Below the pieces are notes generated by a model that saw only the letters and a list, made by a program, of their open reading frames with translations, had not been told where the DNA came from and made no database searches. Of a stretch of DNA of 64,000 nucleotides, positions 3,435 to 58,169 are shown piece by piece. Location of the stretch: contig NC_092376.1 of assembly GCF_030028105.1 (NCBI RefSeq), positions 179,962,080 to 180,026,079 of the forward strand, in the 5' to 3' direction. The position numbers were made by a program, and so were the translations under genes. Every line of letters starts with the position of its first letter. The stretch's first letter is position 1. This DNA is from Mobula birostris. Lineage: Eukaryota.

Positions 3435-3461
3435 ATGATTTCTCCTGGAAATGAGATATAA
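3435..3461 (+). other. Overlapping uORF MISPGNEI* (counterparts at 13729, 28185, 42391, 50139 and 55706)
   Basis: ATG 16 nt upstream of the main ATG and out of frame, present before all six exons; translation is inferred, not shown. Confidence 0.6.
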
Positions 3462-5913
3462 TATAAACGGGCTGTTGAAATACCAACTGTTTTGCGCTCT
3501 GTTCTGTCGTTGGAATCTAGCTTCTGGGCAGATTCGTTACTCTATTCCCGAGGAATTACAACTGGGTGCCTTTGTTGGAAATATCGCAATTGATTTGGAG
3601 TTAGATTTAAAGCAGCTGTCAGCTCGCAGATTGCGGGTGGCGCCCAGCCCGAGGAAGCAGTATGTTGAGGTAAATTTGGAGAATGGGATTTTATTTGTGA
3701 ATGAAAGAATCGATCGGGAACAACTTTGCGGACCGAGCAATGATTGCATTTTATCCTTGAATGTTGTACTTGAAAATCCACTCGGTCTGTATCAGGTGGA
3801 AGTGGAGATTATCGATGTAAATGACAACGCTCCCAGTTTCCCTGAAAGCCACATGCGCCTGGAAATCTCAGAAATTATGGCACCGGGAGCGCGATTCCCC
3901 CTCGAGGCCGCTCACGATCCTGATAGTGGAACTAACTCCTTACAAACATACCAGCTCCTTCCCAATCGATATTTTATTCTTGATGTACAGGAGCGCAGTG
4001 GGAAAGGGAAGCTACCGGTGTTGATGTTGCAGAGCCCTTTAGACAGAGAAACAGTAACCAGTCTCCAGTTAACGCTTTTAGCCGAAGACGGCGGAGTTCC
4101 GATGAAATCGGGCAAGGCCGAGATAACAATCATAGTGCACGATGCGAATGACAACTCTCCTGTTTTTTCGCGGTCCGTTTATACCGTGAGTCTGTTGGAA
4201 ACGGCTCCATTAGGATCCCTCATCATGACAGTAAACGCCACGGACTTGGATGACGGACCAAATGGAGAGATCACGTATTCCATCAGCAGCCACAGTTCTA
4301 AAAATATTCCCGAAGTATTTAGTGTCGATTCAAAAACCGGAGAAATCAGATTGAAAGGACACTTGGACTATGAACAAAATAATTTTTTTGAGATTAATAT
4401 ACAAGCAGTCGATAATGGCCCTTACGCGATACCGCAGCACTGTGATGTGCTGGTGAATGTTGTCGATGTGAATGACAATGCTCCTGACATGAAGTTAACG
4501 TCTACGTTAAGTGCAGTGCCAGAGGATACCTCAGTTGGGACAATAGTGGCACTACTCAGCGTAGATGACAAAGATTCTGGACAAAATGGGCGAGTGCAAT
4601 GCAAAATATCAAGCCAACTGCCGTTTAAAATCGAATCGTCTGTAGAAAACTTTTATAGACTGCTTATACGGCAATCGCTGGATCGTGAAACTGCTTCCAG
4701 GTATGACATTACCATAACATGTACGGATGCAGGGTATCCTAATCTAACGTCCACAGAAACGATTCGAGTAGATGTTACAGATGTTAATGACAACGCTCCG
4801 AGGTTTCTACAAGCAGTACACACTGCGCATGTCATGGAGAACAACGTTATTGGGGCTTCTATATATTCGTTAACTGCTTTTGACTCCGACATAGGACAGA
4901 ACGCCCGTCTGAACTTTTCCATCCTGCCATCTCAGGTTCAGAATTTCGCTATTGACTCTTATATCTACATCAACTCACAAAGTGGTGTCATATATGCTCA
5001 GAAATCTTTTGACTACGAGAAATTAAAAAAATTCAAAATTTACGTTCAGGTGCGGGATTCTGGAACCCCACCCCTCTGCAGCAACTCCTCTGTAGATGTT
5101 GTTGTCCTTGATCAGAACGACAACGCTCCAGTCATTGTGTATCCTTTGCCCCAATATGGGTCAACAGTAATGGAGACGATATCCAGGTTTGCTGAACCTG
5201 GACACCTCGTTGTCCAGGTATCTGCTACTGACGCCGATGCCGGTCAGAATGCTCTTCTAGTTTATCAGATTGCCCAAGCCACTCATCGCAATCTGTTCAC
5301 AATTTCAGCGGATACAGGGGAAATTTGGACTATCCGCGGTATTGAGAACAAGGATGCCTCCAAACAAAGGCTGATGATTGTCGTGAAAGATAATGGAACG
5401 CCTTCGCTCTCTGCAACTGTAACCATATTATTATCTGTGAAAGGGGGCCAAACGATGTCCAGTGCCACCAGTTTATCTAAAAAGGACGATTTTGCGCCCG
5501 ATTTGAACTTCTCCTTGGTCATCGCCTTAGGAACAACTTCTCTGATTTTCCTAATTATTTTGGTTATCCTAGCGTTTAAGGTTCATAAAACAAGAAACGG
5601 TGGTGGATGTCGATACAGTTCTCTGACTACCTGTTGCTGTTTGGGATCAAGGAATTCTGTGAATGGAATTCAAAAGGCCAGTAGGAGCCTTCAGATACCA
5701 CCGAACTACGTTGAGGTATTCGGAGGTGATCCACTTTCCCAGAGTTTCCGTTACAAGTCGTGTTCAACGTTGCAGTCTGTGAAGAGAGACCTCGCGATCC
5801 CGCAAACTTGCGGGTTGTCTACAGATATGCATTACAACCAGCTGAAGTTTGTTGCGAAAGAGAATGCAGGAATGATAAAGCCAGAGGAGAGCAATTGCAA
5901 TGTAAGCACTGAG
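3451..5913 (+). CDS. Clustered protocadherin variable exon 1 (821 codons to the donor; the ORF reads on to a stop at 5928)
   Basis: Signal peptide then GQIRYSIPEE; six EC repeats with LDRE/LDYE and DxNDNxP motifs; EC1 Cys-X5-Cys (CGPSNDC); TM LVIALGTTSLIFLIILVILAF; cytoplasmic IPPNYVEVFGGDPLSQ; phase-0 donor GAG|GTGAGG at 5913/5914. Confidence 0.96.
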
Positions 5914-6384
5914 GTGAGGAGCTGCTGAAGAGAATCGAAATTGTTCACTATTTAATTTGATTATCATGCAAATATTTGGGTCATTGTGATCACTGTACTA
6001 TGATGAAATTAATGTTACGCTCACAATCTCAGTGTGGACGCAGTGATCGAATAATATTTCTAATTGCTTAATGGGTTTATGTTACAAAGTGTTTAGTTTT
6101 TTTCGCAATTGCATGTAACTCCAAGACATTGTTTCACTTGTTTGATCTCTCTGTGAGAGGCTGTGTGGGGGCAGGTTCTAGGCCGTTTAGAATTTATTGT
6201 GATAACAAATTGCGTTAAAATTAACTTGTAGCAAATTACTGAATAAGTATGTTCCAGGCACTATGAACACTGCCTTTGAAGAAAAAAAATGTTTTGGCTG
6301 CTTAAACCCCTTGGTTAGGTATGAGCAAAATGGTTTTGGTGCCGCTTTTCGGTCACACGAGATTTATTCACTCTCTTTGTATTC

Positions 6385-6590: not shown

Positions 6591-6789
6591 GAGTTGTGGA
6601 ATTGGGCAGAACAACTGGAATTAGGGAAAAGTGTTTCGAATCCAGATGCTGTAGTTTGATTGGCTAATGACCAGTCGCAGGGTATTTCACCGAATAAGAC
6701 CGTGGTCGTATTTTTATCTACATTTGATATTGAGAATACATTAATGAGGCGGAGCAACGGCAATTTGAATTTACTCAAGGCGATGCGTA

Positions 6790-9985: not shown

Positions 9986-10960
9986 TTAACATTCAGTCAT
10001 AATACGGACCAGTGTTCTACATGTGGTAAAAGGTTATGGGAAATCAGCACGTGTGGCTGCCACTTCTATTTGGCTTCAATGCTATTTCCGTGTTGTTAAT
10101 ATAAATCAAGGCATCTTTCGATTTAGTTCAATGTCGAATAGATTTGGACCGAAGATGTTTGCTAATTCCCCTTTTTAGTCATTAAAAAGAAATTTATCAA
10201 TTTTAAACCTTCTAGATTTCAAAGAGAGCCGACGGCTATATAAAAAGTAAATTGGAAAATATCACAAATGTCAAAGCTTAACTGGACATCAAAACTTTCA
10301 GGGCCTTTCAAAAGCAGTGGCATCCGAATTACTGAAGGTAACCAAAATGGTTGCTTTTGGTATCTAGATTTCAATAGACGAGCACTGAGATCATGAATAA
10401 CATGATCATGTAGAACCATTCAACAGCAAATTTCGGCTGGTTTTCTTTTATTTCACAACTTCACTTACCACACTCACCACAATTTTTTTGCTACAAACCA
10501 ATTAGTATGGTCCTCTTTTTCCAAAATAGACTACCCAGAACTCACTAGGAGATGAAATTAAAACAAGCACCCCTAAATACCTCCCTCAGTTTTATGCATG
10601 AAGATAACCACCAAAGGTTACTTATTAATTCAGGTGGAATTTGACTCTTGCCTATGTCCTCTGAGTTACACCAAATTCACCAGAAAATTCCCTGCAAAAC
10701 ATAAATAAATATTAACCAGTGACAGAAACGACTGCATGGTGGGTATCAGTTTACGCAAAGCAGATATGACGCAGCCATTTGAAATGTAACCAACGAAAAT
10801 CACTTCATCCGTTCATATGAGGATAATTCTGGTACTAAATAGCCATGCCTTTGACCTTTGGGAAACCAACAGGAATTCTGCAGGTGATGGAGATTCAAGC
10901 AACACACATCAAAGCTGCTGGTGAACGCAGCAGGCCAGGCAGCATCTCTAGGAAGAGGTG

Positions 10961-10998
10961 CAGTCGGCGTTTCAGGCCGAGACCCTTCGTCAGGACTA
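10961..10998 (-). ncRNA. Minimal type I hammerhead ribozyme motif (cleavage triplet mutated to GCC)
   Basis: Minus strand reads UAGUC-CUGACGA-AGGGUCUCGGCCU-GAAAC-GCC-GACUG. Confidence 0.7.
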
Positions 10999-12306
10999 AC
11001 TGAAGGAAGAGTGAGTAAGAGATTTGAGAGGGGGAGGGGAAGATCCAAAGTGATAGGAGAAGACAGGAGGGGGAGGGATGGAGCCAAGAGCTGGACAGGT
11101 GATTGGCATGTCTACTATAAGCCTACTGACTCTCACAGTTATCTGGACTATTCCTCTTCTCACCCTGTCTCTTGCAAAAATGCAATCCACTTCTCGCAAT
11201 TCCTCCGTCTCCGCCGCACCTGCTCTCAGGATAAGGCTTTTCATTCCAGGACGAGGCAGATGTCTTCCTTTTTTAAAGAAAGGGGCCTCCCTTCCTCCAC
11301 CATCAACTCTGCTCTCAAACGCATCTCCCCCATTTCACGCACATCTGCTCTCACTCCATCCTCCCGCCACCCCACTAGGAATAGGGTTCCCCTGGTCCTT
11401 ACCTACCACTCCACCAGCCTCGGGTCCGACATATTATTCTCCGTAACTTCTGCAACCTCTAACGGGATCCGACCACTAAGCACATCTTTCCCTCCCCCCC
11501 CCCCCCCCCCGCTTTCCGCAGGGATCGCTCCCTACGCGACTCCCTTGTCCATTCGTCGTCCCCCACCCCCATCCCTCCCCACTGATCTCCCTCCTGGCAC
11601 TTATCCTTGTAAGCGGAACAAGTGCTACACATGCCCTTACACTTCCTCCCTTACCACCATTCAGAGCCCCAGACAGTCCTTCCAGGTGAGGCGACACTTC
11701 ACCTGTGAGTCGGCTGGGGTGATATACTGCGTCCGGTGTTCTCCATGTGGCCTTCTATATATTGGCGAGACCCGAAGCAGACTGGGAGACCGCTTTGCTG
11801 AACACCTACGCTGTGTCCGCCAGAGAAAGCAAGATCTCCCAGTGGCCGCACATTTTGATTCCACATCCCATTCCCATGCTGACATGTCTATCCACGGCCT
11901 CCTCTACTGTAAAGATGAAGCCACACACAGGTTGGAGGAGCAACACCTTTTATTCCGTCTGGGTAGCCTCCAACCTGACGGTATGAACATTCACTTCTCT
12001 AACTTCCGCTAATGCCCCACCTCCCCCTCGTACCTCATCTGTTATTTATTTTTATACACACATTCTTTCTCTCGCTCTCTTTTTTCTCCCTCTGTCCCTC
12101 TGACTATACCCCTTGCCCATCCTCTGGGTTTCCCCCGTCCCTTGTCTTTCTCCCTGGGCCTCCTGTCCCATGATCCCCTCATATCCCCTTTGCCAATCAC
12201 CTGTCCAGCTCTTGGCTCCATCCCTCCCCCTCCTGTCTTCTCCTCTCATTTTGGATCTCCCCCTCCCACTCCCACTTTCAAATCTCTTACTATCTCTTCT
12301 TTCAGT

Positions 12307-13535: not shown

Positions 13536-13744
13536 GATAGCCAGCAGCTCCACGAGTCCTCTCACATTGTAAAGAAATACGACCATTTCATTGATATAAT
13601 TCGAGCGATTGCCAAGCGGTACGGATCTATTCTGTATCGTTTCTTTTTCTCTCTCACACACACTGTTTATCACTTATGCACTGCAGAAAGGAAAATACGT
13701 AATACTGCCTGGGCCTATAACATTTGGAATGACTTCCACTGGAA

Positions 13745-16204
13745 ATGAGATATAAAGTATATTGGTTGCTGAAATGCCAATTGTTGTTCTGTGTATTCTG
13801 CCTATTGGACATGGTGTGTGGTCAGATTCGTTACTCTATTCCTGAAGAACTACAACCGGGAGCCTTTGTTGGAAAAATCGCTGCCGATTTAGGTTTAGAT
13901 GTGGAGCAGCTGTCGGCTCGCCGCTTGCGGGTAGCGCCCGGTCCTGGTAAGCAGTATTTCGACATAAATTTGGAGAATGGGATTTTAATTGTGAAAAAAA
14001 TTATCGACAGGGAGCTGCTTTGTGGGTCGAATCTCGACTGCCGCTTATCCTTGGATATTGTGCTTGAAAATCCCCTGAGCCTCTACCAGGTGGAAGTGGA
14101 TGTTCTCGATGAAAATGATAATGCCCCCAGTTTTCCGAAAAGCCAGCTTCATCTTGAAATTATAGAGCTTGCAGGACCCGGAATGCGATTTCCTCTTGAA
14201 CCAGCGCACGATCCGGACATTGGCACAAACTCCTTACAAACCTACCGTTTACAATCAAATGACTATTTTAGTCTAGATGTACAAATGCGTCGTGGAAAGG
14301 GCAAATGGCCAGTATTGTTGTTACAGAAACCTTTGGACAGAGAAATAATGGCGACGCATAGTATAACGTTAACGGCAGAAGACGGCGGGTTCCCTACGAG
14401 ATCGGGCACAGTGCAGATTATAGTAGCAGTGAAGGATGTTAATGACAACGCGCCTGTTTTCTCCCAGTCGGTTTACAGAGTCAGATTATTGGAATCTGCA
14501 CCAAAAGGGACTCTGATTATCACATTAAACGCTACTGATATGGATGATGGGCTGAATGGAGAGATAATGTATTCTTTCCGTAGCCATATGTCTTCGACTT
14601 CCCGCAGTCTTTTTGATCTGAATTCCAAAACTGGTGAAATCAGACTCAAAGGGAAGTTGGACTATGAAGAAAGCAACGTCTTTGAAATTAACATACAGGC
14701 GACGGATAAGGGTCCTGGCGCTGTTCCTGAATACTGTGATGTATTGGTTGAAGTTGTCGATGTAAATGATAATGCACCGGAGGTGAAATTGCGGTCTTCC
14801 TCTGCGACTGTTTCGGAAGACGCTCCGCTTGGGAGTGTAGTGGCTCTGTTCACTGCAGAGGATAGAGATTCCGGACAAAATGGTCAGGTACGCTGTCAAA
14901 TTTCAAATCGACTGCCCTTTCAGCTGGATTCGTCTTTAAAGAACTACTACAGAATCCTTGTACAGCACCCACTCGACCGCGAAAACAACCCCAAGTATGA
15001 TATCACTATTGAATGCATGGATGCAGGGGAGCCTCCCCTCACTTCTAAGAAAACCATCCGAGTAGAGGTTTCAGATATAAACGACAACCCGCCAAGGTTT
15101 TCTCGCCCAGTGTACACAGCACATGTTATGGAAAACAACGTTATTGGAGCTTCCATATTTTCTCTGACGGCCGTCGATACAGACGCTGGAGAGAACGCCC
15201 GACTGAACTTTTCTATCCTAGAGTCTCAGGTTCAGAATTTCTCAACAACCTCTTATGTTTCAATTAATTCAGCAAGTGGTGTGATCTATGCTCAGAGATC
15301 TTTTGACTATGAACAATTGAAAAACTTCCAGATTCAAGTTGAAGTGCGGGATTCTGGTACGCCATCTCACACGACCAATGCGTCGGTGAACGTTATTATC
15401 TTGGATCAGAATGATAATGTTCCAGTGATTGTGCATCCTTTACCCGAATACGGGACGTCAGCAATAGAAACAATCTCCAGGTTCACTGAATCTGGCTCCT
15501 TGGTTGTCAAGGTCTCTGCCACCGATGCAGACTCGGATCAGAATGCTCGACTCTCGTATCAGATTCTTCAAGCCACCCATCGCAACCTTTTTACCATTTC
15601 TGCAGACACTGGTGAAGTTTGGACTATCCGTCGAATATTGAACAGAGACGCTTCTAATCAGAGACTGGTGGTTTTGGTAAAAGATAATGGAATACCATCC
15701 CTTTCTGCCACCGTGTCTATATTATTATCTGTGGTTGGGACTGATAGTGAATCGTTCTATGGTGTCAGTAACTCATCAGCAGATTCGGGGAGCATTCCTG
15801 AACTGAGGCTTTCTTTGGTTATAGCCTTGGGAATAATATCTAGCTTACTCCTCATAATGTTAATCATCCTCGCCATTAAAGTTCACAGAAACAGGAAAGG
15901 GATGGTATACCAGCACCGTTCTCTGGGTAGTTGTTGTTGCTCTGAATCAAGAAACTCTTTGAATGGAATACAGAAGACCAGTAAAACCCTTCAGATACCA
16001 CCAAACTATGTTGAAGTATTTGGGGGCGATCCTCTCTCACAAAGATTCCGTTACGGGTCATGTTCGACATTGCAGTCTACCAAGAGGGATTTCACCGTCT
16101 CCATCAACAGTCGATCCTCTGCAGACCAAAATTTTGTTCTGAACGAATCCGCCTGTAAAGGAAATGTTGCAATGGTGGATTCTGAAAAACATAGCGTTCC
16201 TGAG
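13745..16204 (+). CDS. Clustered protocadherin variable exon 2 (820 codons; ORF stop 16240)
   Basis: Same 6-EC/TM architecture; CGSNLDC; donor GAG|GTAAGG at 16204/16205; closest paralog is exon 3. Confidence 0.96.
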
Positions 16205-16499
16205 GTAAGGTCATTTAAAACAGAGAGCGAAAACCTTTAAAGTTTTGCTGGAAAGCACAAGAATTTGGATAGCTACCAGTATATTAAGATAAACAGCGTG
16301 AATCGTGTAGCTAAAGAGAAACACTGCGCTCATTGTTAAATCTGTTTGACATTACTTTTTTTTTGTCCAGTGTGATGTTTTGCAGACAAAAATGATATAT
16401 AATTCTAATATATTGCCAAAGAGTTACAAACCTTTCTTGACATCGCCTTGATTTTTCGAGGTATGGTTACTCCTTTCTGCATTCTTTCCTCCAGGAGAG

Positions 16500-27996: not shown

Positions 27997-28200
27997 GGTA
28001 GCCTGCAGCTCGGTGGGATTGTTGCACGAATCATTTCGCATCTGTAAGGAAATGTGAGTATTTGATTGAAATAATTCGGGCGATTGGCAAGAGGTACAAA
28101 TATGCCTTGTGCCGTTTGTCCTATTTAACATTGAATCACTTCTAAAAGGACAATAGAATACTGTCTGGGCTTAAAACCATTGGAATGACTTCTACTGGAA

Positions 28201-30660
28201 ATGAGATACAAAATATATTTGTTGCTAAAATGCCAATTGCTGCTTTGCGTGTTCTGGCTGTCGAATATTGTGTCTGGTCAAATTCAATATTCTGTTCCTG
28301 AAGAACTCCAACCGGGAGCCTTTGTTGGGAAAATCGCAGCCGATTTAGGTTTAGATGTGAAGCAGCTGTGGTCTCGCAGATTGCGGATAGCGCCCAGTCC
28401 ACGGAAGCAGTATTTCGACGTAAATGTACAGAATGGAACTTTATTTGTGAAAGAAATTATCGACAGGGAACTGCTTTGTGGGTCTAATCTCGATTGCCGC
28501 TTATCGTTGGAAATTGAGCTTGAAAATCCCCTGAGCCTCTACCAGGTGGAAGTGGAGGTTCTCGATGAAAATGATAATGCCCCCAGTTTTCCGAAAAGCC
28601 AGCTTCATCTTGAAATTATAGAGCTTGCAGGACCCGGAATGCGATTTCCTCTTGAACCAGCGCACGATCCGGACATTGGCACAAACTCCTTACAAACCTA
28701 CCGTTTACAATCAAATGACTATTTTAGTCTGGACGTACAAATGCGACGTGGAAAGAGCAAGTGGCCAGTATTGTTGTTACAGAAACCTTTGGACAGAGAA
28801 ATAATGGCAACGCATAGTATAACGTTAACGGCAGAAGACGGCGGATTCCCTCCGAGATCGGGCACAGTGCAAATTATAGTAACAGTGAAGGATGTTAATG
28901 ACAACGCGCCTGTTTTCTCCCAGTCGGTTTACAGAGTCAGATTATTGGAATCTGCACCAAAAGGGACCCTGATTACTACATTGAACGCAACTGATTTAGA
29001 CGATGGCCTCAATGGAGAGATAGTGTATTCTTTTCGTAGCCATATCTCTTCGACTGCTCGTAAACTTTTTGATCTGAATTCCAAAACTGGTGAAGTCAGG
29101 CTGAAGGGGAACCTGGACTACGAAGAAAGCAATGTTTTTGAGATAAAAATACAAGCGACAGATAAGGGTTCTAACGCTGTTCCCGAGTACTGTGATGTAT
29201 TTGTTGAAGTGATTGATGTGAATGATAACGCGCCGCAGGTGATATTGCGGTCTTCCTCTGCGACTGTTTCGGAAGTTGCTCCGCTTGGCAGTGTAGTGGC
29301 TCTGTTCACTGCAGAGGACAGAGACTCTGGAAAAAATGGTCAGGTGCGTTGTCAAATTTCAAATCGACTACCCTTTAAGCTGGACTCATCTTTAAAGAAC
29401 TACTACAGAATCCTTGTACAGCACCCGCTCGACCGCGAAAGCAATCCCAGGTATGATATTACTATTACATGCACGGATGCGGGGGACCTTCCCCTCATTT
29501 CCAAGAAAACCATCGGAGTAAAGGTTTCAGACGTAAATGATAACGCACCAAGGTTTTCTCGCCCAGTATTCACAGCAAATGTTATGGAAAACAACGTTAT
29601 CGGGTCCTCTATATTTTCACTGACGGCCTTCGATACGGACGCTGGAGAGAACGCCCGACTGAACTTTTCTATCTTGGACTCTCAAGTTCACAATTTCTCA
29701 ACAACCTCCTATGTCTCAATTAATTCAGAAAGTGGTGTTATCTATGCTCAGAGATCTTTTGACTATGAACAATTGAAAAACTTCCAGATTCAAGTTGAAG
29801 TGCGGGATTCTGGTACGCCACCTCACACGACCAATGCGTCAGTGAACGTTGTTATCCTGGATCAGAATGATAATGCGCCAGTGATTGTGCATCCTTTACC
29901 CGAATACGGGTCGTCAGCAATAGAAACAATATCCAGGTTCAGTGAACCGGGGTCCTTGGTTGTCAAGGTATCAGCCACCGATGTAGACTCGGGTCAGAAT
30001 GCTCGACTCTCTTATGAGATTTTTCAAGCCACGCATCATAATCTTTTTACCATTTCGGCAGAGACTGGCGAAATTTGGACTATCCGTCCAATTGTGAACA
30101 GGGATGCCCCTAATCAAAGACTAGTGGTTGTGGTAAAAGACAATGGAATGCCACCACTTTCTGCCACTGTGACAATTGTATTATCTGTGATTGGGACTGA
30201 TACTGAAACGGTCTCTAGGGTCAGCAGTTCTTCGGTGGATCCCAGAGTCCCTCCTGAACTGAGCCTTTCCTTGGTTATAGCCTTGGGAATAATATCTAGC
30301 ATTTTGCTCATAATGTTAATCATCCTCGCCATTAAAGTTCACAAAAACAGGAATGGTGCGGTATGCCAGCATCACTACCTGAGCTCCATTTGTTGCTTCG
30401 AAACAAGAAATAGTTTCAATGGAATTAAAAAGGCCAGCAAAAGCATTCAGATACCACCAAACTATGTTGAAGTGTTTGGGGGCGATCCTCTCTCCCAAAG
30501 ATTCCGTTACGAGTCATGTTCGACATTGCAGTCTACCAAAAGGGATTTCACACTCTCCAGCAGGAACAGGTCATGTGCAGACCAGAACTTTGTTCTGAAC
30601 GAATCTGTCGGTAAAGGAAATATTGCAATGGTGGATTCTGAAAAATACAGCATTCCTGAG
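28201..30660 (+). CDS. Clustered protocadherin variable exon 3 (820 codons; ORF stop 30684)
   Basis: Same architecture; donor GAG|GTGAGG at 30660/30661; same length as exon 2 and colinear with it. Confidence 0.96.
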
Positions 30661-36804: not shown

Positions 36805-37726
36805 ATGAGTGTGAGGGCAGTTTGCTGTTCTCGGTGTCGGATGTGGGAGGCCCTGGAGTCTACAAGCCTCCCGGACGTCTACATCTGCGCCAGGTACATC
36901 GAGATGCAGCTCCTTAGGGACCGCGTTACGGAACTGGAGCTGCAGCTCGATGACCTTCGTCTAGTCAGGGAGAGTGAGGAGGTGATAGAGAGGAGTTGCA
37001 GGCAGGTGGTCACGCCGGGGCCACGGGAGGCAGACAAGTGGGTCACGGTTAGGAGGGGGAAGGGGAAAGGTCAGGTAATAGGGAGTGCCCCTTAACAACA
37101 GGTACTCCTGTTTGAGTACTGTTGGGGGTGACAGCTTACCCGGGAGAAGCGACAGTTGCCGTGCCTCCGGCACAGAGTCCGGCCCTGTAGCTCAGAAGGG
37201 TAGGGCAAGGAAGAGGAGGGCAGTTGTGATAGGGGACTCGATAGTAAGGGGGTTAGATAGGCGATTCTGTGGACGCAGTCCAGAGACTCGGATGGTAGTT
37301 TGCCTCCCTGGTGCCAGGGTCCGGGATATTTCTGATCGTGTCCAAGATATCCTGAAGTGGGAGGGTGAGGAGCCAGAGGTCGTGGTACATATAGGTACCA
37401 ATGACATAGGTAGGAAAAGGGATGAGGTCCTGAAAGGAGAATATAGGGAGTTAGGAAGGGAGTTGAGAAAAAAGACCGCAAAGGTAGTAATCTCGGGATT
37501 ACTGCCTGTGCCACGCGACAGTGAGAGTAGGAATGCGATGAGGTGGAGGATAAATGCGTGGCTGAGGGATTGGAGCAGGGGGCAGGGATTCAAGTTTTTG
37601 GATCATTGGGACCTCTTTTGGCGCAGGCGTGACCTGTACAAAAAGGACGGGTTGCACTTGAATCCTAGGGGGACCAATATCCTGGCAGGGAGATTAGCGG
37701 GGGCTGCGGAGGTGACTTTAAACTAG
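36805..37726 (+). pseudogene. CR1 ORF1 (zinc finger/coiled coil plus SGNH/GDSL esterase), frameshifted
   Basis: C..C zinc motif and heptad LELQLDDL; GDSIVR, LPGA, HIGTND and DGLH blocks. Confidence 0.88.
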
Positions 37727-37731
37727 AATGG

Positions 37732-40700: not shown

Positions 40701-40754
40701 CTTGTGGCTTCGGGGGTCAGGGGGTATGGAGGGAAGGCTGGGGCGGTGTTCTGA
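37732..40754 (+). pseudogene. CR1 ORF2 (APE endonuclease plus reverse transcriptase), frameshifted
   Basis: NARS, ITETW, YRPP, GDFN, SDHN; YRPVSL, QGSVLGP, FADD; KAFDNRRL lacks residues of the FDKVPH motif seen in other copies. Confidence 0.92.
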
Positions 40755-42185: not shown

Positions 42186-42406
42186 GGCAGAGCCAGCAGT
42201 AACAGAGCATTTACTTGTTTCAGGACCGGAGACAATTCGATTCCTTTCTAACCGGAGACAATATGAGAGCATTTCAATAGAAACAGAAGAGTAAATTTGG
42301 TAAAAGGTACAGATATTTTTTGCATGAATTTATCCGTTATAATTGAAACCGCAATAAAAAAAGATTTTGCATCCGGGCGAAACCATTGGAATGATTTCTC
42401 CTGGAA

Positions 42407-44839
42407 ATGAGAGATAATATAAACTGGCTATTGAAATACCAACTGCTTTGCTCTTTGTTCTGTCGTTGGAATCTAGCTTCTGGGCAGATTCGTTACTCTA
42501 TTCCCGAGGAATTACAGCTGGGTGCCTTTGTTGGGAATATCGCAATTGATTTGGGGTTAGATTTAAAGCAGCTACCGTCTAGAAGATTGCGGGTGGCGCC
42601 CAGTGCGAAGAGTCGGTATGTTGACGTAAATTTGGAGAATGGAATTTTATTTGTGAATGAAAGAATCGACCGGGAACAACTTTGCGGGCCGAGCACTGAA
42701 TGCGTTTTAACATTCAACGTTGTGCTTGAAAATCCCCTCGCTCTGCACCAGGTGGAAATTGAGATTCTCGATGTAAATGACAATGCTCCCAGTTTCCCTA
42801 AAAGCCAGATACGCCTGGAAATGTCAGAGATTATGGCACCGGGAGCGAGATTTCCCCTTGAAGCTGCGCACGATCCGGATATTGGAACTAACTCCTTACA
42901 GACATACCAGCTCCTTCCCAATGATTACTTTGTTCTTGATGCAGAGCTACGAGATGGTATAAGGAAGTTCCCGTTATTGGTGCTGCAAAAGGCTTTGGAC
43001 AGAGAAAGGATATCGACCCATCAGATAACTCTAGTTGCCGTAGACGGCGGAGTCCCTGTGAAATCGGGCACGGCCCAGGCAACAATAACGGTGAACGATG
43101 CGAATGACAACTCTCCTGTTTTCCAGCAGTCGGTTTATAAGGTCAATATTTTGGAATCGGCTCCCACAGGAACACTGCTTATCACGGTAAATGCCACTGA
43201 TTTGGACGATGGTCGAAATGCAGAGATAATATACGCCCTCAGCAGCCATAATTCAGCTGAGGTTCGCGACTTAGTTAGCGTGAACTCCAAAACTGGTGAA
43301 ATCAGACTGAAAGGACCGTTGGACTATGAACAGCAAAGAACATTTATGATTAATATTCAAGCAATCGATAATGGTCATCCCACGATGTCCCAACACTGTG
43401 ATGTGCTGGTGGATGTAATGGACGTGAATGACAACGCTCCCGAGCTGACCTTCACATCCAGTGCAAATGCCGTAGCAGAAAATGCTGCAGTGGGAACTAT
43501 TGTCGCCCTTATCAGCGCAGAAGATAAGGATTCTGGGCAAAATGGGCAAGTACAATGTCAAATTCCGAGTAAACTTCCCTTTAAGTTAGATTCGTCCATA
43601 ACTAACAGTTGGATATTGCTTATACAGCGTTCGCTGGATCGCGAAACTACCTCGAGTTATGACATCACTCTAACTTGCATGGACACAGGGAGCCCTGCCC
43701 TCACATCTAAGGAAACGATCCATGTGGAAGTCTCAGATGTAAATGATAATGCCCCAAGCTTTACACAGCCTACATACACGGCAAATATCATGGAAAACAA
43801 CGCCATTGGGAATTCCATATTCTCTCTGAACGCATTCGATCCAGACTCGGCACAGAATTCCCGCTTGAACTTTACTATCCTGAATTCATCCGCAGCTTCG
43901 TATGTCTCCATCAACTCGCAGAGTGGTGTGATATTTGCTCGGAGATCCTTTGACTACGAGCAGTTAAAAAACTTTCAGATATACATTAGGGTTCAGGATT
44001 CTGGAGTCCCACCCCTCGCCGGTAACGCTACAATCAATGTTAATATCCTTGATCAGAACGATAATCCCCCGGTGATTGTGCATCCTGTGCCCGAGTATGG
44101 GTCAACCGTAATGGAGACAATAAGTAGGTTTGCTGAACCTGGATATCTCGTTGCCAAGGTCTCGGCTACTGACGCCGATACTGGTCAGAATGCTCGGCTG
44201 TCTTACCAGATTTTTCAGGCTACCAATCGTGATCTTTTCACTATTTCAGCAGACACCGGTGAAATTTGGACTATCAGAGCGATTCAGAGCAAGGATGCTT
44301 CTAACCAAAGACTTGAGATTGTCGTAAAAGATAACGGAACGCCCTCACTTTCAGCCGCAGTAACCATAGTGATATATGTGTCAGGAAGTGAAACGATCTC
44401 CAGCTCCACCAGCTTAAACAACGATCGTGAGTTCTCTCCCAAACGAAATCTTTACTTAGTCATAGCGTTAGGGTCTATGTCTATAATTTTCCTCGTAATT
44501 TTAATTATTCTTGCTATTATAGTTCATAATAATAGAAACGGAATGGAATGCCAATACAATGTTTGTTACTGTTTGGAAACAAGCAACTTTCTAAATGGGA
44601 CCCAAAAAGCCAGTAGAAGCCTTCAGATACCTCCGAACTATGTCGAGGTATTCGGAGGTGATCCACTTTCCCAGAGTTTCCGTTACGAGTCGTGTTCGAC
44701 TTTGCAGACCATGAAGAGAGACTTTGCAACCCCGCACGGACCATCTTCATCTGTTCCCTGCAGCCAAAAGAAATCCATAGTGAAAGAAGACCCTGGCATG
44801 TTAAACTCTGAAGTCTACAGTTGCAAAACAAAGAACGAG
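42407..44839 (+). CDS. Clustered protocadherin variable exon 4 (811 codons; ORF stop 44866)
   Basis: Same architecture; donor GAG|GTGAGC at 44839/44840; shortened EC5 loop shared with exons 5 and 6. Confidence 0.96.
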
Positions 44840-46071: not shown

Positions 46072-47093
46072 TAGAAACATAGAAACATAGAAAATAGGTG
46101 CAGGAGTAGGCCATTCGGCCCTTCGAGCCTGCACCACCGTTCAGTATGATCATGGCTGATCAACCAACTCAGAACCCTGTACCTGCCTTCCCCCCATACC
46201 CCCTGATCCCCGTAGCCACAAGGGCCATATCTAATTCCCTCTTAAATATAGCCAAAGAACTGGCCTCAACTGTTTCCTGTGGCAGAGAATTCCACAGATT
46301 CACCACTGTCTGTGTGAAGAAGCTTTTCCTAATCTCGGTCCTAAAAGGCTACCCCTTTATCCTCAAACTGTGACCCCTCGTTCTGGACTTCCCCAACATC
46401 GGGAACAATCTTCCTGCATCTCACCTGTCCAATCGCTTTAGGATTTTATACGTTTCAATAAGATCCCCCCTCAATCTTCTAACTTCCAGAGAGTATAAGC
46501 CTAGCCGATCCAGTCTTTCATCATATGAAAGTCCTGCCATCCCAGGAATCAATCTGGTGAACTTTCTTTGTACCCCCTCTATGGCAAGATTGTCTTTCCT
46601 CAGATTAGGGGACTAAAACTGCACACAATACTCCAGGTGTGGTCTCACCAAAGCCTTGTACAACTGCAGTAGTATCTCCCTGCTCCTGTACTCGAATCCT
46701 CTTGCTATGAATGCCGGCATACCATTCGCCTTTTTCACTGCCCACTCTCAATGACTGGTGTATAATGACACCCGGGTCTCGTTGCACCTCCCCTTTTCCT
46801 AATCGGCCACCATTCAGATAATAATCTGTTTTCCTGTTTTTGCCACCAAAATGGATAACCTCACATTTATCCACATTAAATTGCATCTGCCATGAATTTG
46901 CCCACTCACCTAACCTATCCAAGTCACCCTCCAGCCTCTTAGCATCCTCCTCACAGCTAACACTGCTGCCCAGCTTCGTGTCATTCGCAAACTTGGAGAT
47001 GCTGTACTTAATTCCCTCGTCTAAGTCATTAATATATATTCTAAACAACTGGGGTCCCAGCACTGAGCCCTGCGGTACCCCACTAGTCACTGC
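46072..47093 (-). mobile_element. CR1 3' fragment of the same subfamily as 36510-40850
   Basis: Reverse complement closely matches ~39812-40850, including the tail. Confidence 0.92.
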
Positions 47094-47839
47094 ATGTGAC
47101 ATCAATGATGGCACCGTGACTTAACTCGAGGAGAAGTGGTTGCTCAGGACGGGAAATGGAAAGCAATTCTGCTATATAGGAGTGCTTCCTAAGTTACAAG
47201 TCAAAGCAACAGTATTCTGTGGAGCTTCTTTCATGTGAGTATGGATAGCTTGCCTATTTAGAGAATGTTGAATATAAATTTGCATCGTGTGGTCAATAAC
47301 AAACTTTCCCAATTATAATACTATGCTGGAACATAGCTTACGAAGTGTCCGAGATGGAAGCGTATACTCAGAACCCTAAGGAATTACTGAAGAGATGCTT
47401 TGCTTTACAGATTAGCAGAAAGTTATGATTTTTTGTATAGTGCTGTAGGTGTCATCGGTAAGGCTAGTGTTACCCATCCGACGAGGCCTTTAGGAAAGTG
47501 GCAAAGAGACATCATTATAAAGCAATGAGGTGGTGGATCTCCTGCAAAGTTACTGCAGAAGAAATTCCAAGAATTCCATTTAGGAGCAGTGAAACAATTG
47601 TGATTTATGATTCCTAGTCAAAGCTAAACGTATAACAAGGATGAAAGCAGAGAATATTAAAGTACTCCAAAGAATATTGATTTTTGAGTTACTAGCGAAG
47701 TATTCTACAAGTTACTATTCTATTCATTTCGCTAAAAGGAAGACACTTAATGGATTGCATTATGCATTACATTTTGAACACAGTCAATCACTCCAGCTTT
47801 TGTTTTTGGAGTGCGTTTGCATGCTGTGCGTTTACATGA

Positions 47840-48844
47840 TCAGAATCTGTATCAGAAGCAGGTTTAATATCGCCGGCATACGTCGTGAAATTTGTTAACT
47901 TTACAATACATGATAGCACATGATAAATATAGAAAAAAAGCTGAATTACAGCAAGTATATACGTGTATACTAAAAGGTTAACTTTAAGTAAGTATTGCAA
48001 AACAGAAATAAAAGAACGAGTGAGGTAATGTTCATGGGTTCAATGTCTATTTACAAATTGGATGGCAGAGGGGAAAATGTTCCTGAAACGCTGAATATGT
48101 GCTTTCAGGCTTCTGTACCTCTTTCTTGATGGTAACAATGAGAAAAGGGCATGATGGACACCGCTTTTCTGTGGCAGCACTCCCTGAACTTGTCTTGGAT
48201 ACTACACAAGGTTGTACGCATGATGGAGTTGACTAATGTAAACACTTCCAGCAGTTTACTTCGATCCTATGCAGTAACCCCCACCAACACTTCCGCCCTC
48301 CCTCCATACCAGACGGTGATGCTGCCTGTTAGAATCCTCTCCACGGTAGAAGTTTTCGAGTATTTCAGGTGATAAACTAAATTTCCTCAAACTCCTAATA
48401 AAATATAGCCGTAGTCTTGCCTCCTGTATAGCTGCATCGATATGTTGTGACCAGGATAGATCCTTAGAGATGTTGACACCCAGGAACTAGCAATTGCTCA
48501 CTCTCTCCACTTCTGATTCCTCTGTGAGTATTGGTTCATGTTTCCTCGTCTTACTCTTTCGGATGTGCACAATCAGCTCTTTGGTCTTATTGTCAATGTG
48601 TGCAAGGTTGTTGCTGTGACACCACTCAGCCAACTGGTATATCTCCCTCCTGTGCGCCCGCTGTTACCATCTGAGATTCTGCCAACATGGTTGTATGATC
48701 AGCACTGGAACCATGCCTAGCCACACAGTCATGGGTATAGAGAGAGCGGATCAGTGCGCTAAGCACGCATCTCTGAGATGCGCAGTGTTGATTGTCAGTG
48801 AGGTGGAGATGTTATTACCAATCCACACAGATTGTGGTCTTCAC
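47840..48844 (-). mobile_element. Rex1/Babar-like LINE 3' fragment
   Basis: ATCAGAATC-type tail; minus-strand LLPSRKRYRSLK..RFRN-like motif. Confidence 0.65.
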
Positions 48845-49102
48845 AATCACTTTGAATGATGCGAATGACAAATCTCCTGTATTCTCGTAGTTGCTGTAAT
48901 CAGGTCACTATGCTCTAATCAGCTTCCATAGTATCTCCCATTATTACGTTAAACGCCATTAATTGGATGCTGGCCCGAATGGAGAGAAAACTTCTGCCCT
49001 CAGCAGTCATAACTCAGATGAAATTCGCGAAGTAGATGGCGTGAATTCGAAAACTGAGGAATTAAAATTGCAAGATCTGCTGGTCTATGAACCAGAGAAA
49101 GT
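48845..49102 (+). pseudogene. Decayed protocadherin relic (EC2/EC3 junction and EC3)
   Basis: Reads ITLNDANDKSPVFS*...ITLNA..LDAGPNGEKTSALSSHNSDEIREVDGVNSKTEELKLQDLLVYE with stops and frameshifts; aligns by eye to 50833-51085 and to the same part of exons 4 and 6. Confidence 0.85.
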
Positions 49103-49813: not shown

Positions 49814-49956
49814 GCTTTAAGAAATCAGATGAATTCCAATTGGTCCGATATGAATACTGCATTATCGACCAATCAGAAGCTGAGGTGTGACTGGTGATCC
49901 GCACAGCCCCCTTCAGTACCCAGCCTCTATGGCTTAGGCTCAGACGCCGTGAAAAC
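49814..49956 (+). promoter_or_regulatory. Conserved promoter module of exon 5
   Basis: GCTTTAAGAA 49814, ATTGG 49839, CCAAT 49869, GTGATCCGCACAGCCC 49894, CAGACGCCGTGAAAAC 49941. Confidence 0.85.
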
Positions 49957-50154
49957 TGTATAGCAAGCAGCACCGGAGTATTTATACACAGTTTGTTTCA
50001 AATTGGAGACGACGTAAGAACATTTCAATGCAGATAACAGAGAATATCGTAAAAAGGGGGCTGGTGTTTTCTGCATCGCAAATTATCATTTGCCTAAATC
50101 GCTGCTAAAAGGCTTTGTCTCTGGTCGAAACTATTGGAATGATTTCTCCTGGAA

Positions 50155-52590
50155 ATGAGAGATAATATACACTGGTTGGTGAAATATCAGCTGTTTTGCT
50201 GTTTGTTTGCCCATTTGGATTTTGTTCGTGGCCAGATTCGTTATTCTGTTCCCGAGGAATTACAAGTAGGTGCTTTTATTGGGAATATCGTGCTTGATTT
50301 GGGGTTAAATTTAAAACAGCTGTCGACTCGCAGATTACGGGTGGCGCCCAGTCCGAGGAAGCGGTATGTTGACGTCAGTTTGGAGAATGGGATTTTATTT
50401 GTGAATGAAAGAATCGACCGGGAGCAACTTTGCGGGCCAAGCACCGAATGCGTTTTATCATTCAACATTGTGCTTGAAAATCCCCTCGGTCTGTACCAGG
50501 TGGAAGTGGAGATTCTCGATGTAAATGATAACGCTCCCAATTTTCCTGAAAGCCAGACCGGACTGGAAATCTCAGAGATTATGGCACCGGGAGCGCGATT
50601 CGCTCTCGAGGCCGCGCAAGATCCGGACATTGGAACTAATTCCTTGCAGACATATCATCTCATCCCCAATGAATATTTCATTGTCGACGTACAAGTACAC
50701 GATGGTATAGGGAAGTTCCCAGTATTGGTATTGCAAAGGGCATTGGACAGAGAAACGATATCGACCCATAGGTTAACGCTACTTGCTGAAGACGGCGGGG
50801 TCCCTGCGAAATCTGGCACAGCCCAGGTAACAGTCACAGTGAACGATGCTAATGACAACTCTCCTGTGTTCTCCCAGTCGGTTTATAAGGTCAATCTGCT
50901 GGAATCAGCTCCCATAGGAACTCTGATTATTACGTTAAACGCCACTGATTTGGACGATGGCCCGAATGGAGAGATAACGTACTCCCTCAGCAGCCATAAT
51001 TCAGCTGCGGTTCGCGAATTAGTTGGTGTGAATTCCAAAACTGGTGAAATCAAACTAAAAGGACCGTTGGACTATGAGAAAAGCAGAGCACTTATGATTA
51101 ATCTGCGAGCAGTCGATAACGGCCCTTACCCAATGCCCCAGCACTGTGATGTGTTTGTGGGTGTCACCGATGTTAATGACAACGCTCCAGAGCTGTCAGT
51201 GACGTCCCTGTCAAATGCCGTGGCAGAAAATGCTCCAGTGGGAACCATTATCTCCCTCCTCAGTGCGGAAGATAAGGATTCTGGGCAAAATGGGCATGTC
51301 GAATGTCGAATTCCGAATAATCTTCCCTTTAAGTTAGATTCCCCTGTGAAAAACAATTGGAAACTCTTTGTACAGCATGCGCTGGATCATGAAACTACCT
51401 CCAGGTATGACATTACGGTGTCTTGCACAGATGCAGGGCGTCCACCCCTCACAGCTAAGGAAATTATCCAGGTGGAAGTTTCAGATGTAAATGATAATGC
51501 GCCAAGATTTACACAACCTGTATACACGGTAAATGTTATGGAGAACAACGTTATTGGGGACTCCATATTCTCCCTGACAGCTTTCGATCCAGACACAGGA
51601 CAGAATTCCCGATTGAACTTTACTATCCTGGATTCATCCGTAGCTTCGTATGTCTCCATTAACTCGCAGAGTGGTGTCATATATGCTCAGAGATCCTTTA
51701 ACTACGAGCAGTTAAAAAACTTCCAGATATACATTAGGGTTCAGGATTCCGGTGTCCCACCCCGCGCCAGTAACGCTACTGTTAATTTTGTTATCCTTGA
51801 TCAGAATGATAACGCCCCGGTGATTATACATCCTTTACCGGAGTACGGATCAACAGTAATGGAGACAATATCCAGGTTTGCTGAACCTGGATATCTTGTG
51901 GTCAAGGTCTCTGCTACTGATGCCGACGCTGGTCAGAATGCCCATCTGTCTTACCACATTTTTCAAGCTACGCATCCCGATCTGTTCACGATTTCTGCAG
52001 ACTCTGGTGATATTTGGACTATCCGTGGTATACGAAGTAAGGATGCTACAAAACAACGGCTGGTGATTGTCGTAAAAGATAAGGGAACACCCCCACTATC
52101 AGCCACGGTAACCATAGCAATATCTGTGACAGGAAGTCAAAAGATCCCCAGTGCCACCAGCTTAAGCAAAGATCGCGAGTTCTCCCCTAAACTGAACCTT
52201 TACTTAGTTATCGCATTAGGAACGACATCTATCGTTTTCCTCATAATTTTAATTATCCTTGCTATTAAAGTTCATAATAACAGTAACGGAATTAGATGCC
52301 AATATAATGTCTGTTACTGTTTGGAAACAAGGAACTTAAATGGAACTCAAAAAGCTCGCAGAAGCCTTCAGATACCGCCTAACTATGTTGAGGTATTCGG
52401 AGGAGATCCACTTTCTCAGAGCTACCGTTACGAGTCATGTTCAACTTTGCGGTCAGTGAAGAGGGAATTCCCGACACCCCACAAGCGTGGAGCGTCTACA
52501 GATATTCCCTATGCACAGCAGAAACCTCTTGGGAAAGGAAGTGCAGGAATGGTAAACTCTGAAATCTACAGCTGCAATACGCGTAATGAG
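50155..52590 (+). CDS. Clustered protocadherin variable exon 5 (812 codons; ORF stop 52599)
   Basis: Same architecture; donor GAG|GTGAGT at 52590/52591. Confidence 0.96.
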
Positions 52591-53554
52591 GTGAGTTAAT
52601 TCGCAAAATAAAGTAAATCGTTTTGATTTTCTGGCCATTGCATATCCTGGGACTGCTTGAACTCTCCGTCAAAGTATTATTGGTTCATGTTTCGCAACCC
52701 TACTTGTCGTGCATATTTTTTATTTAAGTGTTCCGAATTCTGTTGGATTGTATGTAATTCCAACGCGTTGCTCCACAAAGTTCTGGAAGCCCACAGGCTT
52801 CTCTCAAGTGAGGTTAATCGCAGTCCTTGGTGGGGGGGGGGGGTGCGAGGGAGATTAAACTGCTCCACATTTACTACACTCATACTTTAGATCTGTTGGC
52901 AAAACCCAGGAGCATACCGCTGAGCGTAACTTACTGTGAGCACATCATTGGAGAGTAACAGTTCTTCTCGGTTTTTTAAAGTCACTTGTATTTAAAAGCT
53001 GAAGGAAATAATCATGTCGCCGCTGAAAAGCGGAAATCGAAACGAGCTTGATGTACAGAAATTACAGCAACATCTGTGGAGCGAGAATCAAGCGTCAACG
53101 TTTCGTTCGATGACCTTAAATCGAACCTTGATGTAGGGTGATCATTCCGGAATACTATGTTTCAGTTTGTCTCCATCAGGGCTGCTTGAGATGATCAGTA
53201 TCTCAAAATATTTTGGATTATTATTTAGGATCTAAACTATGTATTGAATCTAAATTATCTGCTACTGAGCCGGAGAGTCAATTTTGACAATAATTAACTC
53301 TGCATATATTATCGGCGTTACATAATCAGTCTAAGAGAGATTGTTCCAACAAGACGCTGATTGCCTCCTTTTTAGTGGCTAAAGTGTACCGAAAGCGCTC
53401 AAACACCATAGAAGCCAAATATGCATCTTGTGACAGCCAACGTATGTATAGCTCATTCACAAGTTTCTAAGAAATAGTGAGGTATATTTTAGCAATACAA
53501 GGGATCTTGTCATGCTGTTATTTCCTTCTGCATTCACATTTCTTTATTAGAGTC

Positions 53555-54467: not shown

Positions 54468-54489
54468 CTAATTAATTAATTAATTAATT
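54468..54489. repeat. (TAAT)n microsatellite
   Basis: TAATTAATTAATTAATTAATT. Confidence 0.8.
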
Positions 54490-55382: not shown

Positions 55383-55525
55383 GCTTTAAGAAATTAGCTG
55401 AATTCTAATTGGCCAGATATGAAAGCTGCATCGTTCACCAATCAGAAGCTGAGCTGCAAGTGGTGATCCGCACAGCCCCCTTCAACACGCAGCCGCCATC
55501 ACGTATGATCAGACGCCGTAAAAAC
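55383..55525 (+). promoter_or_regulatory. Conserved promoter module of exon 6
   Basis: GCTTTAAGAA 55383, ATTGG 55408, CCAAT 55438, GTGATCCGCACAGCCC 55463, CAGCCGCCATC 55490, CAGACGCCGTAAAAAC 55510. Confidence 0.85.
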
Positions 55526-55721
55526 AGGATACCAGGCAGCACCGGAGGATTTACACACGGCTCGTTTCGAATTGGAGAAAAATGAGAAAATAGCAATCCA
55601 AAAAATAGAGGAAATATAAAAGACGTAAAATATTTTCTGCATCGCATTGCTCCCAGTTAAATAAACCGCTGTGAAAAGGCATTGTCTCGGGTCGAAACCA
55701 TTGGAATGATTTGTCCTGGAA

Positions 55722-58169
55722 ATGAGAGATAATATACACTGGTTAGTAAAATATCAGCTCTTTTGCTGTTTGTTTACCCGTTTGGATTTTGTTAGTGGCC
55801 AGATTCGTTATTCTGTTCCCGAGGAATTGCAACTGGGTGCCTTTGTTGGGAATATTACAATTGATTTGGGGTTAAATTTAAAGGAACTGTCAGCTCGTAG
55901 ATTGCGGGTGTCGCCCAATCCGAGGAAACGGTATGTTGACGTTAATTTGGAGAACGGGATTTTGTTTGTGAATGAAAATATCGACAGGGAACAACTTTGC
56001 GGGCCGAGCACCGAATGCGTTTTATCATTTAACGTTGTTCTTGAAAATCCCCTCGGTCTGCACCAGGTGGAAGTGGAGATTCTCGATGTAAATGATAACG
56101 CTCCCAGTTTCCCCAACAGTCAGATCCGACTGGAAATCTCAGAGATGATGGCACCGGGAGCGCGATTCCCCCTCGATACCGCGCACGATCCGGACATTGG
56201 AGCTAACTCCTTGCAGACGTATCAGCTCCTTCCCAATGAATATTTCATTCTTGACATAGAAGAACGCGATAGAATAGGAGCGTTACCGTTGTTAGTTCTG
56301 CAGAGGGGTTTGGACAGAGAAACGATATCGACGCATCAGTTAACGCTACTTGCTGAAGACGGCGGAGTCCCTGTGAGATCAGGCACTGCACAGATTTTAA
56401 TCATAGTGAAGGATACGAATGACAACTCTCCTGTTTTCTCACAGTCGGTTTATAAGGTCAATATGTTAGAATCGGTTCCCATAGGAACGCTGATTATCAC
56501 GTTAAACGCCACTGATTTGGACGATGGTACAAACGGAGAGATAACATATGCCCTCAGCAGCCATAATTCAGCTGAGGTCCGTGCGTTAGTACGTGTGAAT
56601 TCCAAAACTGGTGAAATTAGACTGCAAGATCACTTGGACTATGAACAAAGAAAGAGTTTTGTAATCAATATTCAAGCAGTGGATAATGGTCAACCCGCAA
56701 TGTCTCGGCGCTGCGATGTGCTGGTGGATTTAATTGATGTGAATGACAACGCTCCTGAACTTACGGTGACATCCATGTCGAATGCCGTGCCAGAAAATGC
56801 CCCTGTGGGAACTATTGTCGCCCTTCTCAATGCAGAAGATAAGGATTCTGGGCACAATAGGCAAGTGCAATGTCAAATTCCGAATAAACTTCCCTTTAAG
56901 TTAGATTCCCCGGTGAAGAATAATTGGAAACTGCTGATACAGCATGAGCTGGATCGCGAAACTATCTCTAGGTATGACATTACTGTAACCTGTAGAGATG
57001 CGGGGAACCCTTCCCTCACCTCTAAGGAAACGATCCCCGTGGAAGTTTCAGATGTAAATGATAATGTTCCAAGTTTTACAGAGTCTCGGTACACGACAAA
57101 TATTATGGAGAACAATATTGTTGGGGGTTCCATATTCTCTGTGACAGCCTTCGATCCAGATACTGGGCAGAACGCCCTACTGAAATTTAGTATTGTGTAT
57201 TTATCTGTCGACTCGTCTGTCTCCATCAATTCAAAGAGTGGTGTCATCTTTGCTCAAAGATCGTTTGATTACGAGAAATTGAAAAGCTTCCAGATCCAAG
57301 TTCAGGTGCAGGACTCTGGAATCCCAGCCCTCAGCAGTAACGTTACAATCGATGTTGTTATCCTTGATGAGAACGATAATACCCCAGTGATCGTGCATCC
57401 TCTACCCGAGTATGGGTCAACAGTAATGGAGGCAATATCCAGGTTTGCTGAACCTGGATATCTCGTGGTCAAAGTGTCAGCCACTGACGCCGACGCTGGT
57501 CAGAATGCCCGCCTATCTTACCACATTTTTCAGGCTACACATCGCGATTTGTTTACTATTTCAGCGGACACCGGTGAAGTTTGGACTATCCGTAGTATAC
57601 AAAGGAAGGACGCTTCTAAACAACGACTGGTAATTGTTGTAAAAGATAATGGAAGGCCCTCACTTTCAGCCACAGTAACCATAGTAATATCTGTGGCAGG
57701 GGCCGAAACGATCACCAGTGCTACCAGTTTAAGTAAAGATCGTGAGTTCTTCCCTGATCTGAATCTTTATTTGGTCATAACATTTGGAACGACATCTGTT
57801 ATTTTTCTAGTAATTTTAATTATCCTTGCTATCAATGTTTATAATAACAGAAACGGAATGTGGTGCCATTACAGCTCTCCGAGTATCTGTTGCTGTTGGA
57901 AAACAAGGAATTTCCTAAATGGAACTCAAAAGGCCAGTAGAAGCCTTCATATACCACCGAACTATATTGAGGTATTTGGAGGTGATCCACTTTCTCAGAG
58001 TTACCGTTACGAGTCGTGTTCAACGTTGCAGTCCGGAAAGAAAGAATTCACGGCCCCGCACAAACGTGGACCACCTGCAGAAAATTCCTATGCAGAGCAA
58101 GCAACTCTTGCGAAAGAAAGTGCAGGAAGGGTAAGCTCTGAGATCTACAGCTGCAATGCAAGTAATGAG
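55722..58169 (+). CDS. Clustered protocadherin variable exon 6 (816 codons; ORF stop 58274)
   Basis: Same architecture; donor GAG|GTGAGT at 58169/58170. Confidence 0.96.

Follow-up and report, generated by a model that had tools for sequence, protein, structure and literature searches.

Why should a set of related genes keep a second, out-of-frame start codon at one fixed place just ahead of the true one? The question is raised by a 64,000-nucleotide stretch of Mobula birostris DNA (NC_092376.1, positions 179,962,080 to 180,026,079; "the window" below means this whole stretch, and unlabelled coordinates refer to it). It carries six protocadherin (Pcdh) open reading frames (ORFs) of 814-850 codons each, here W1 to W6, with main ATGs at 3451, 13745, 28201, 42407, 50155, and 55722. 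A preliminary description had reported an upstream ATG (uATG) exactly 16 nt before each of them, at 3435, 13729, 28185, 42391, 50139, and 55706, and all six were confirmed. The peptides and stops of the corresponding upstream ORFs (uORFs), all on the plus strand and overlapping the main ATG, were also as described: MISPGNEI in W1 (3435..3461), MTSTGNEI in W2 (13729..13755), a frame of 38 codons in W3 (28185..28301, stop at 28299-28301), MISPGNER in both W4 (42391..42417) and W5 (50139..50165), and MICPGNER in W6 (55706..55732). W3 lacks the usual stop owing to a change that is synonymous in the Pcdh frame.

Conservation of the upstream ATG in the Pcdh-nu-like clade

When the first 100 residues of W5 were searched against the same genome, 71 matches were returned, of which 69 lie in a single 2.3-Mb array on the plus strand of C8. 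Beyond the window, 63 cluster matches and two unlinked ones (L064 and L065, used as outgroups) were also analysed; removal of the pseudogenes L003 and L060 from the counts left 67 cluster genes for scoring. At the 3' end of the cluster lies a clade of 26 intact genes that includes those of the window and joins Pcdh nu8, nu13, nu15, and nu17 of elephant shark (FastTree, support 0.994). The truncated L059 was excluded from the trees and counted among the 41 genes outside this clade, whose main ATGs were chosen by distance to the EC1 start, four of them by hand, and a few may be wrong.

An ATG at exactly -16 is present in 25 of the 26 intact nu-clade genes, namely the six of the window and 19 paralogs outside it; the sole exception is L004, in which the surrounding block also carries a 1-nt deletion. 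At this position an ATG is absent from all 41 other cluster genes examined, pseudogenes excluded. The claim that the codon precedes every variable exon therefore holds for the nu-like clade and fails for the rest of the cluster, where some out-of-frame ATG within 30 nt upstream occurs in 14 of the 41 genes, nine of these at -10 in one young clade.

Examination of the sequence around the uATG revealed a conserved start-proximal block, -28 to -1, on the plus strand at 3423..3450 (W1), 13717..13744 (W2), 28173..28200 (W3), 42379..42406 (W4), 50127..50154 (W5), and 55694..55721 (W6). Its mean identity over the 25 carriers is 0.72, versus 0.43 at fourfold degenerate sites, of which none of 47 is invariant and along which the tree length is 11.6 substitutions per site. 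Since neutral sites are saturated to this extent, the uATG is under strong purifying selection. Parsimony assigns no change to the ATG in all 25 carriers, compared with a mean of 6.6 changes per fourfold site. In a held-out check, the 19 block columns that do not vary among the six window genes were reduced to six over all 25 (T-21, G-19, A-16, T-15, G-14, and T-11), including the whole ATG and the G at its -3 position; retention of the three ATG bases has a hypergeometric p of ~0.02 by hand calculation. The alignment has no gaps from -22 to +12, as opposed to 62 distinct gap extents from -200 to -29, a count that depends on the alignment. The block keeps its place relative to the main ATG, while the distance from promoter to ATG takes 17 different values in the 25 genes.

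The constraint is distributed unevenly over the uORF itself. Relative to the uATG, position -3 is G in all 25 genes, whereas -2 (G in 19, A in five, C in one), -1 (A in 23, G and T in one each) and +4 (A in 16, C in five, T in three, G in one) vary; of the context described earlier, G at -3 and A at +4, both bases occur in all six window genes and only the former throughout the clade. The uORF has eight codons in 13 genes, nine in six, 25-52 in five, and four in one; a stop 11 nt into the Pcdh coding sequence, found in the window genes as listed, is shared by only 13 of the 25. This stop is a side product of the codons for the signal peptide, and synonymous changes abolish it. The residues of the uORF peptide differ across the 25 genes, which sets it apart from the class of uORFs with conserved peptides. 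An invariant -3 base combined with a variable -2, -1, +4, peptide, and stop is what a regulatory start codon would be expected to show. In regulatory uORFs generally, the start is kept and the peptide is unconstrained (PMC7889888).

N-terminally extended annotations among 122 homologous proteins served as a proxy for other species. Seven nu-type proteins have an in-frame extension reaching codon -7, from sharks (P0048, P0056, P0105, P0121), rays (P0058, P0115), and a chimaera (P0087), and all seven read L-[E/Q/G]-C at codons -7 to -5; genes with TGA at codon -15..-13 cannot occur in such a set. The cysteine in seven of seven places TG at -15/-14 in an unchanged register and shows this dinucleotide to be old; an A at -16 is compatible with the extensions. 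A region search for further extended proteins returned eight matches, one of them new and informative. In contigs of two related organisms no difference is listed across the W6 uATG (55700-55712); its retention is shown for organism B and likely for organism C, where one of the 22 differences in the W6-ortholog contig is unlisted. Taken together, the feature is probably ancient in the nu subcluster.

In the second clade mentioned above, L048-L058 (C8:178.72-178.98 Mb), a separate start-proximal block containing a GAATG word is strongly conserved, and nine of 11 genes have an out-of-frame ATG at -10 that shares the frame of the -16 ATG. We rejected this ATG as independent support, because the variable bases include its G and the clade is young (fourfold tree length 1.95, with 22 of 117 fourfold sites invariant). 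In another group, two of three genes (L035 and L037) have an out-of-frame ATG at -25, again in the -16 frame. In the pseudogene L003 (C8:179855582), decay of the block extends to its uATG and main ATG alike.

Transcription was approached through assembled, unstranded contigs from six runs guessed to be RNA, none of which is on record as RNA and one of which, X2, was classed as probably DNA. The runs behave as RNA: in X1, X2, and X3, the W5 contigs part from the genomic sequence at the splice donor. An identical X1 contig (55522-55743) bridges the uATG and the coding sequence of W6 and suggests a leader at 55522..55721; an identical X2 contig of W5 (49956-50162), extending just 21 letters past the uATG, suggests one at 49956..50154. 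For both we infer the plus strand and the start. Among 11 informative 5' contig starts, in W6-equivalent positions, four lie near -195 to -200 (four genes, two studies) and two near -245. Contig ends are not proof of a start, and the X1 coverage gap upstream of 55522 was not counted as a transcription start site; we see in these ends a weak hint that sense transcription begins ~60 nt after a GATC box, near -200, which would place the uATG in the mRNA leader.

This GATC box belongs to a conserved promoter module found in all window genes (in W6 at 55438..55500, with no strand assigned) and comprising a CCAAT box, the GATC box, and CTCF-like and GCCAT stretches. The GATC box and CTCF-like stretch, at about -260 to -245, form a candidate conserved sequence element (CSE)/CTCF site by motif likeness. 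The module is present at the same place in all 26 nu-clade genes. A near-invariant CCAA(T/C) box lies exactly 25 nt before the GATC(C/T) box wherever both were found, the GATC box is followed by the CTCF-like stretch and a YY1-like GCCAT, and many nu genes have a second, inverted CCAAT further upstream. The factor names are presumptive. Contigs of some nu genes from runs X3, X5, and X6, likewise unstranded, cross and pass the module (to W6-equivalent -284 to -534), as an antisense long noncoding RNA (lncRNA) of the Pcdh-alpha type would. A splice-donor-like AG/GTA word, followed by a T-rich stretch, is partly conserved at about -100 to -125 in many nu genes (in the window near 3350 and 42304); no spliced joint at this word was seen in the contigs.

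A putative decoy start and competing explanations

Judging from the sequence, we put the probability at roughly 0.5 that the uATG acts as a decoy start, a leaky gate in the form of an overlapping uORF that captures part of the scanning ribosomes and caps the translation of each isoform. If translated, it would be an overlapping uORF, which is a known class. Sense transcripts would begin ~200 nt upstream and so carry the uAUG in their leader, where 43S complexes would meet it in a medium context, with G at -3 and, in only one of the 25 genes, G at +4; a purine at -3 without G at +4 allows leaky scanning (PMC3308164). Initiation at the uAUG would yield a throw-away peptide of 8-9 residues that ends past the main AUG and no signal-peptide-bearing Pcdh, and the remaining ribosomes would reach the main AUG either by leaky scanning or through back-and-forth competition between the two AUGs. 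In yeast reporters, AUGs within ~17 nt compete, inhibition by an upstream AUG weakens as it approaches the main one, and out-of-frame initiation can trigger decay (PMC9743702). Partial, uniform damping is expected from such competition and from the weakening of inhibition with proximity, and not a shut-off. The earlier statement that only leaky scanning reaches the main ATG needs adjusting at 16 nt, which lies at the edge of the range, determined mostly in yeast, in which AUGs compete instead of obeying a strict first-AUG rule (PMC9743702). As every nu isoform has the same gate, a common ceiling for whichever isoform is chosen is to be expected, and not discrimination among isoforms. We would tentatively extend this proposal to the whole Pcdh-nu family: a translational gate older than the split of chimaeras from sharks and rays may give each stochastically chosen isoform the same capped output.

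The translational governor proposed in the preliminary description gains in part from the selection on the codon, the invariance of -3, the freedom of peptide and stop, and the RNA contigs that carry the uATG, and it is narrowed in being confined to the nu-like subcluster and in not being the sole gate. ATGs are usually depleted near the starts of vertebrate coding sequences, which makes retention of this one costly (PMC4890304).

Several observations weigh against a wholly translational role. The uORF overlaps the main ATG in 24 of the 25 genes, and in L063 it terminates ahead of it, with the stop at -1. Further, unconserved ATGs occur in 23 of the 25 predicted leaders (63 in all), so the uATG at -16 is not the only gate, and the depletion of ATGs in the leader is modest (56 observed versus 74 expected). 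The equally invariant T-21 and T-11, together with T-10 (23 of 25), are accounted for neither by Kozak context nor by translation in general, and this extra constraint on the block is real; similarly, -3 holds G in every case and A in none, though either purine would serve. DNA elements are able to produce such a pattern, as the promoter cores of these genes show, in which stretches of 4-5 bases are just as invariant. Other clades also have start-proximal conservation, but its best-kept part is not the proximal ATG. Finally, five of the 11 informative 5' contigs pass the promoter module, to between -284 and -534, and as the contigs are unstranded, antisense or upstream RNA could supply the coverage of the leader.

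Part of these observations would be explained if the block were a site for a DNA- or RNA-binding protein, with a core T-T-G-[G/A]-A-A-T-G-N-N-T-T or a double GGAATG/GGAAATG, the ATG being kept as part of the motif and its translational cost being a side effect. We take this as a strong rival, though a less probable one than the decoy start. It accommodates the invariance of T-21, G-19, and T-11 outside the ATG, the exclusion of A at -19, the spacing fixed to the base, and the equal conservation of other promoter motifs in nu genes, and it finds a parallel in the different block of the second clade, where the GAATG word is present and the ATG is lost in two of 11 genes. The distance of the block, however, is constant to the start codon and not to the promoter, and the words named earlier as TEAD, CCAAT, and STAT-like elements fit poorly, with exact matches as follows: TGGAATG in 15 of 25 (W1, to which it had been ascribed, reads TGGTATG), ATTGG in 13, and TCCTGGAA in seven. 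The relaxed form R-G-[A/T/C]-ATG of the candidate TEAD (MCAT) core is found in 18 of 25, and G-18, a core base by TEAD preferences, has changed three times, as opposed to G-19, which never has. The decoy-start and protein-binding readings are not mutually exclusive.

The remaining explanations fare worse. A core-promoter initiator, serving an antisense start or a second sense start near the ATG and leaving the uATG outside the mRNA or at its very 5' end, is unlikely. The minus strand, reading TCATTCC, matches the initiator consensus YYANWYY in 16 of 25 genes, several contigs extend upstream across the promoter, and mammalian Pcdh-alpha antisense lncRNAs run through the sense promoter (PMC7811963); yet any purine-N-N-ATG-purine resembles an initiator on the opposite strand, the BBCABW form occurs in just seven of 25, and in mammals the CTCF site with which the antisense promoter is linked lies within the exon, ~700 bp downstream of the CSE (PMC7811963). 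The four contigs of four genes starting near -195 to -200 are a further, weak hint against it. Uniformity of the block with no function, through plain shared ancestry or through gene conversion among paralogs, the latter offered earlier as an alternative, is now largely refuted and very improbable. There is documented conversion in the Pcdh clusters of teleosts and mammals (PMC2764143), and one non-sister pair, W4 and L012, has identical blocks. On average, however, block identity is just 0.72, block distance tracks coding distance over EC2-6 (Spearman 0.69, from 300 non-independent pairs), which conversion does not explain, fourfold sites are saturated, the register is retained in chimaera, sharks, and rays, and conversion among elephant-shark Pcdh genes is limited (PMC2764143). 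An RNA hairpin controlling access to the main AUG deserves very little credence: a short stem across -13 to +8 can be folded in some genes, but the mean folding z-score against shuffles is +0.10 over the 25 genes and their consensus fold is empty. That the block encodes a main-frame N-terminal extension (L-E-C/W-F-x-L-E), with TGA as selenocysteine or a relic, is scarcely conceivable. Codon -15..-13 is TGA in 16 genes, TGC or TGT in eight, and TGG in one, and extended annotations exist among homologs, whereas the invariant bases G-19 and A-16 are third codon positions, the opposite of coding constraint, and most genes have an in-frame stop nearby and no upstream in-frame start. A splice acceptor, with branch point, pyrimidine tract, and AG after the ATG, was rejected, as the AG is not kept in the clade and a contig runs through unspliced.

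Window genes and the surrounding cluster

The closest named proteins to the window genes are ray proteins with 76-80% identity. Cluster genes are large exons in tandem on the same strand, encoding a signal peptide, cadherin repeats, and a membrane segment, and their homologs contain cadherin Pfam families. The Pcdh-nu-like variable exons of the window have their coding sequences, all on the plus strand, at 3451..5913 (W1, predicted donor GT at 5914), 13745..16204 (W2, predicted donor at 16205), 28201..30660 (W3, predicted donor at 30661), 42407..44839 (W4, predicted donor at 44840), 50155..52590 (W5, donor at 52591), and 55722..58169 (W6, predicted donor at 58170). The W5 donor is the point where the contigs of three runs (X1, X2, and X3) depart from the genome; the junction matches full-length homologs, and the departure is consistent with splicing to a shared constant exon.

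Traces of turnover are found throughout the array. A 250-bp remnant of a variable exon at 48843-49101 is 73-78% similar to the interior of the W4, W5, and W6 exons; L003, L059, and L060 are broken variable exons, and L019 with L020 as well as L048-L051 are recent, near-identical duplicates. Between the variable exons lie ORFs or fragments resembling long interspersed nuclear elements, classified by eye (37082-40754, 46079-47120, and 62813-63838), and other repeat-derived ORFs (10888-12012 and 25189-25926).

Significance and relation to known systems

Control of clustered protocadherins is so far understood almost entirely in terms of promoter choice. Recognition of self relies on the isoform mix displayed at the cell surface. 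A translational cap common to all nu isoforms, if true, would be a new layer of protocadherin dosage control acting after promoter choice, and the 25 copies would make a natural test set for the rules of start-codon competition. Whichever explanation is right, retention of the uATG in 25 paralogs marks a strong and unexplained constraint, because an out-of-frame AUG in good context so near the start is normally removed by selection. The element spans 30 bases. The reach of the finding is limited, since bony vertebrates have no ortholog of the nu subcluster (PMC2764143).

Our literature searches found no description of a start-proximal uATG or uORF in clustered protocadherins, although the elephant-shark cluster paper (PMC2268768) or its supplements may cover the nu 5' flanks. 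The known control of clustered Pcdh genes involves promoter choice, CSE/CTCF sites, enhancers, and antisense RNA (PMC7811963). The window genes share with the elephant-shark nu subcluster (P0100, P0101, P0103, P0104; PMC2764143) both the clade and the junction between variable and constant exons.

Among the 25 genes, the upstream ATGs other than the one at -16 vary in position and in count (0-6), and none is conserved. In ATF4 and ATF5, the inhibitory uORF2 is an out-of-frame uORF overlapping the main start. The Pcdh-nu genes, unlike these, lack a conserved reinitiation-permissive uORF further upstream and have only 16 nt between the two AUGs, a spacing probably too short for delayed reinitiation to select between them; a stress switch of the ATF4 type is therefore unlikely. 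The closely spaced competing AUGs described by a Brownian-ratchet model (PMC9743702) resemble the present case in being two nearby out-of-frame AUGs, 16 nt being the edge of the ~17-nt range. They differ from it in that they were studied in synthetic yeast reporters with limited mammalian tests and that such AUGs are depleted in genomes (PMC9743702), whereas the Pcdh-nu family retains one. There is a resemblance in form to vertebrate overlapping uORFs, which likewise have an upstream AUG that is out of frame, a frame ending past the main AUG, a conserved start, and a neutral peptide, and which are expected to be repressive (PMC7889888, PMC4890304). Unlike them, the Pcdh-nu uAUG, known here from sequence, sits at the same position in 25 paralogs, all alternative first exons in a single tandem array, and is embedded in a block with additional invariant bases.

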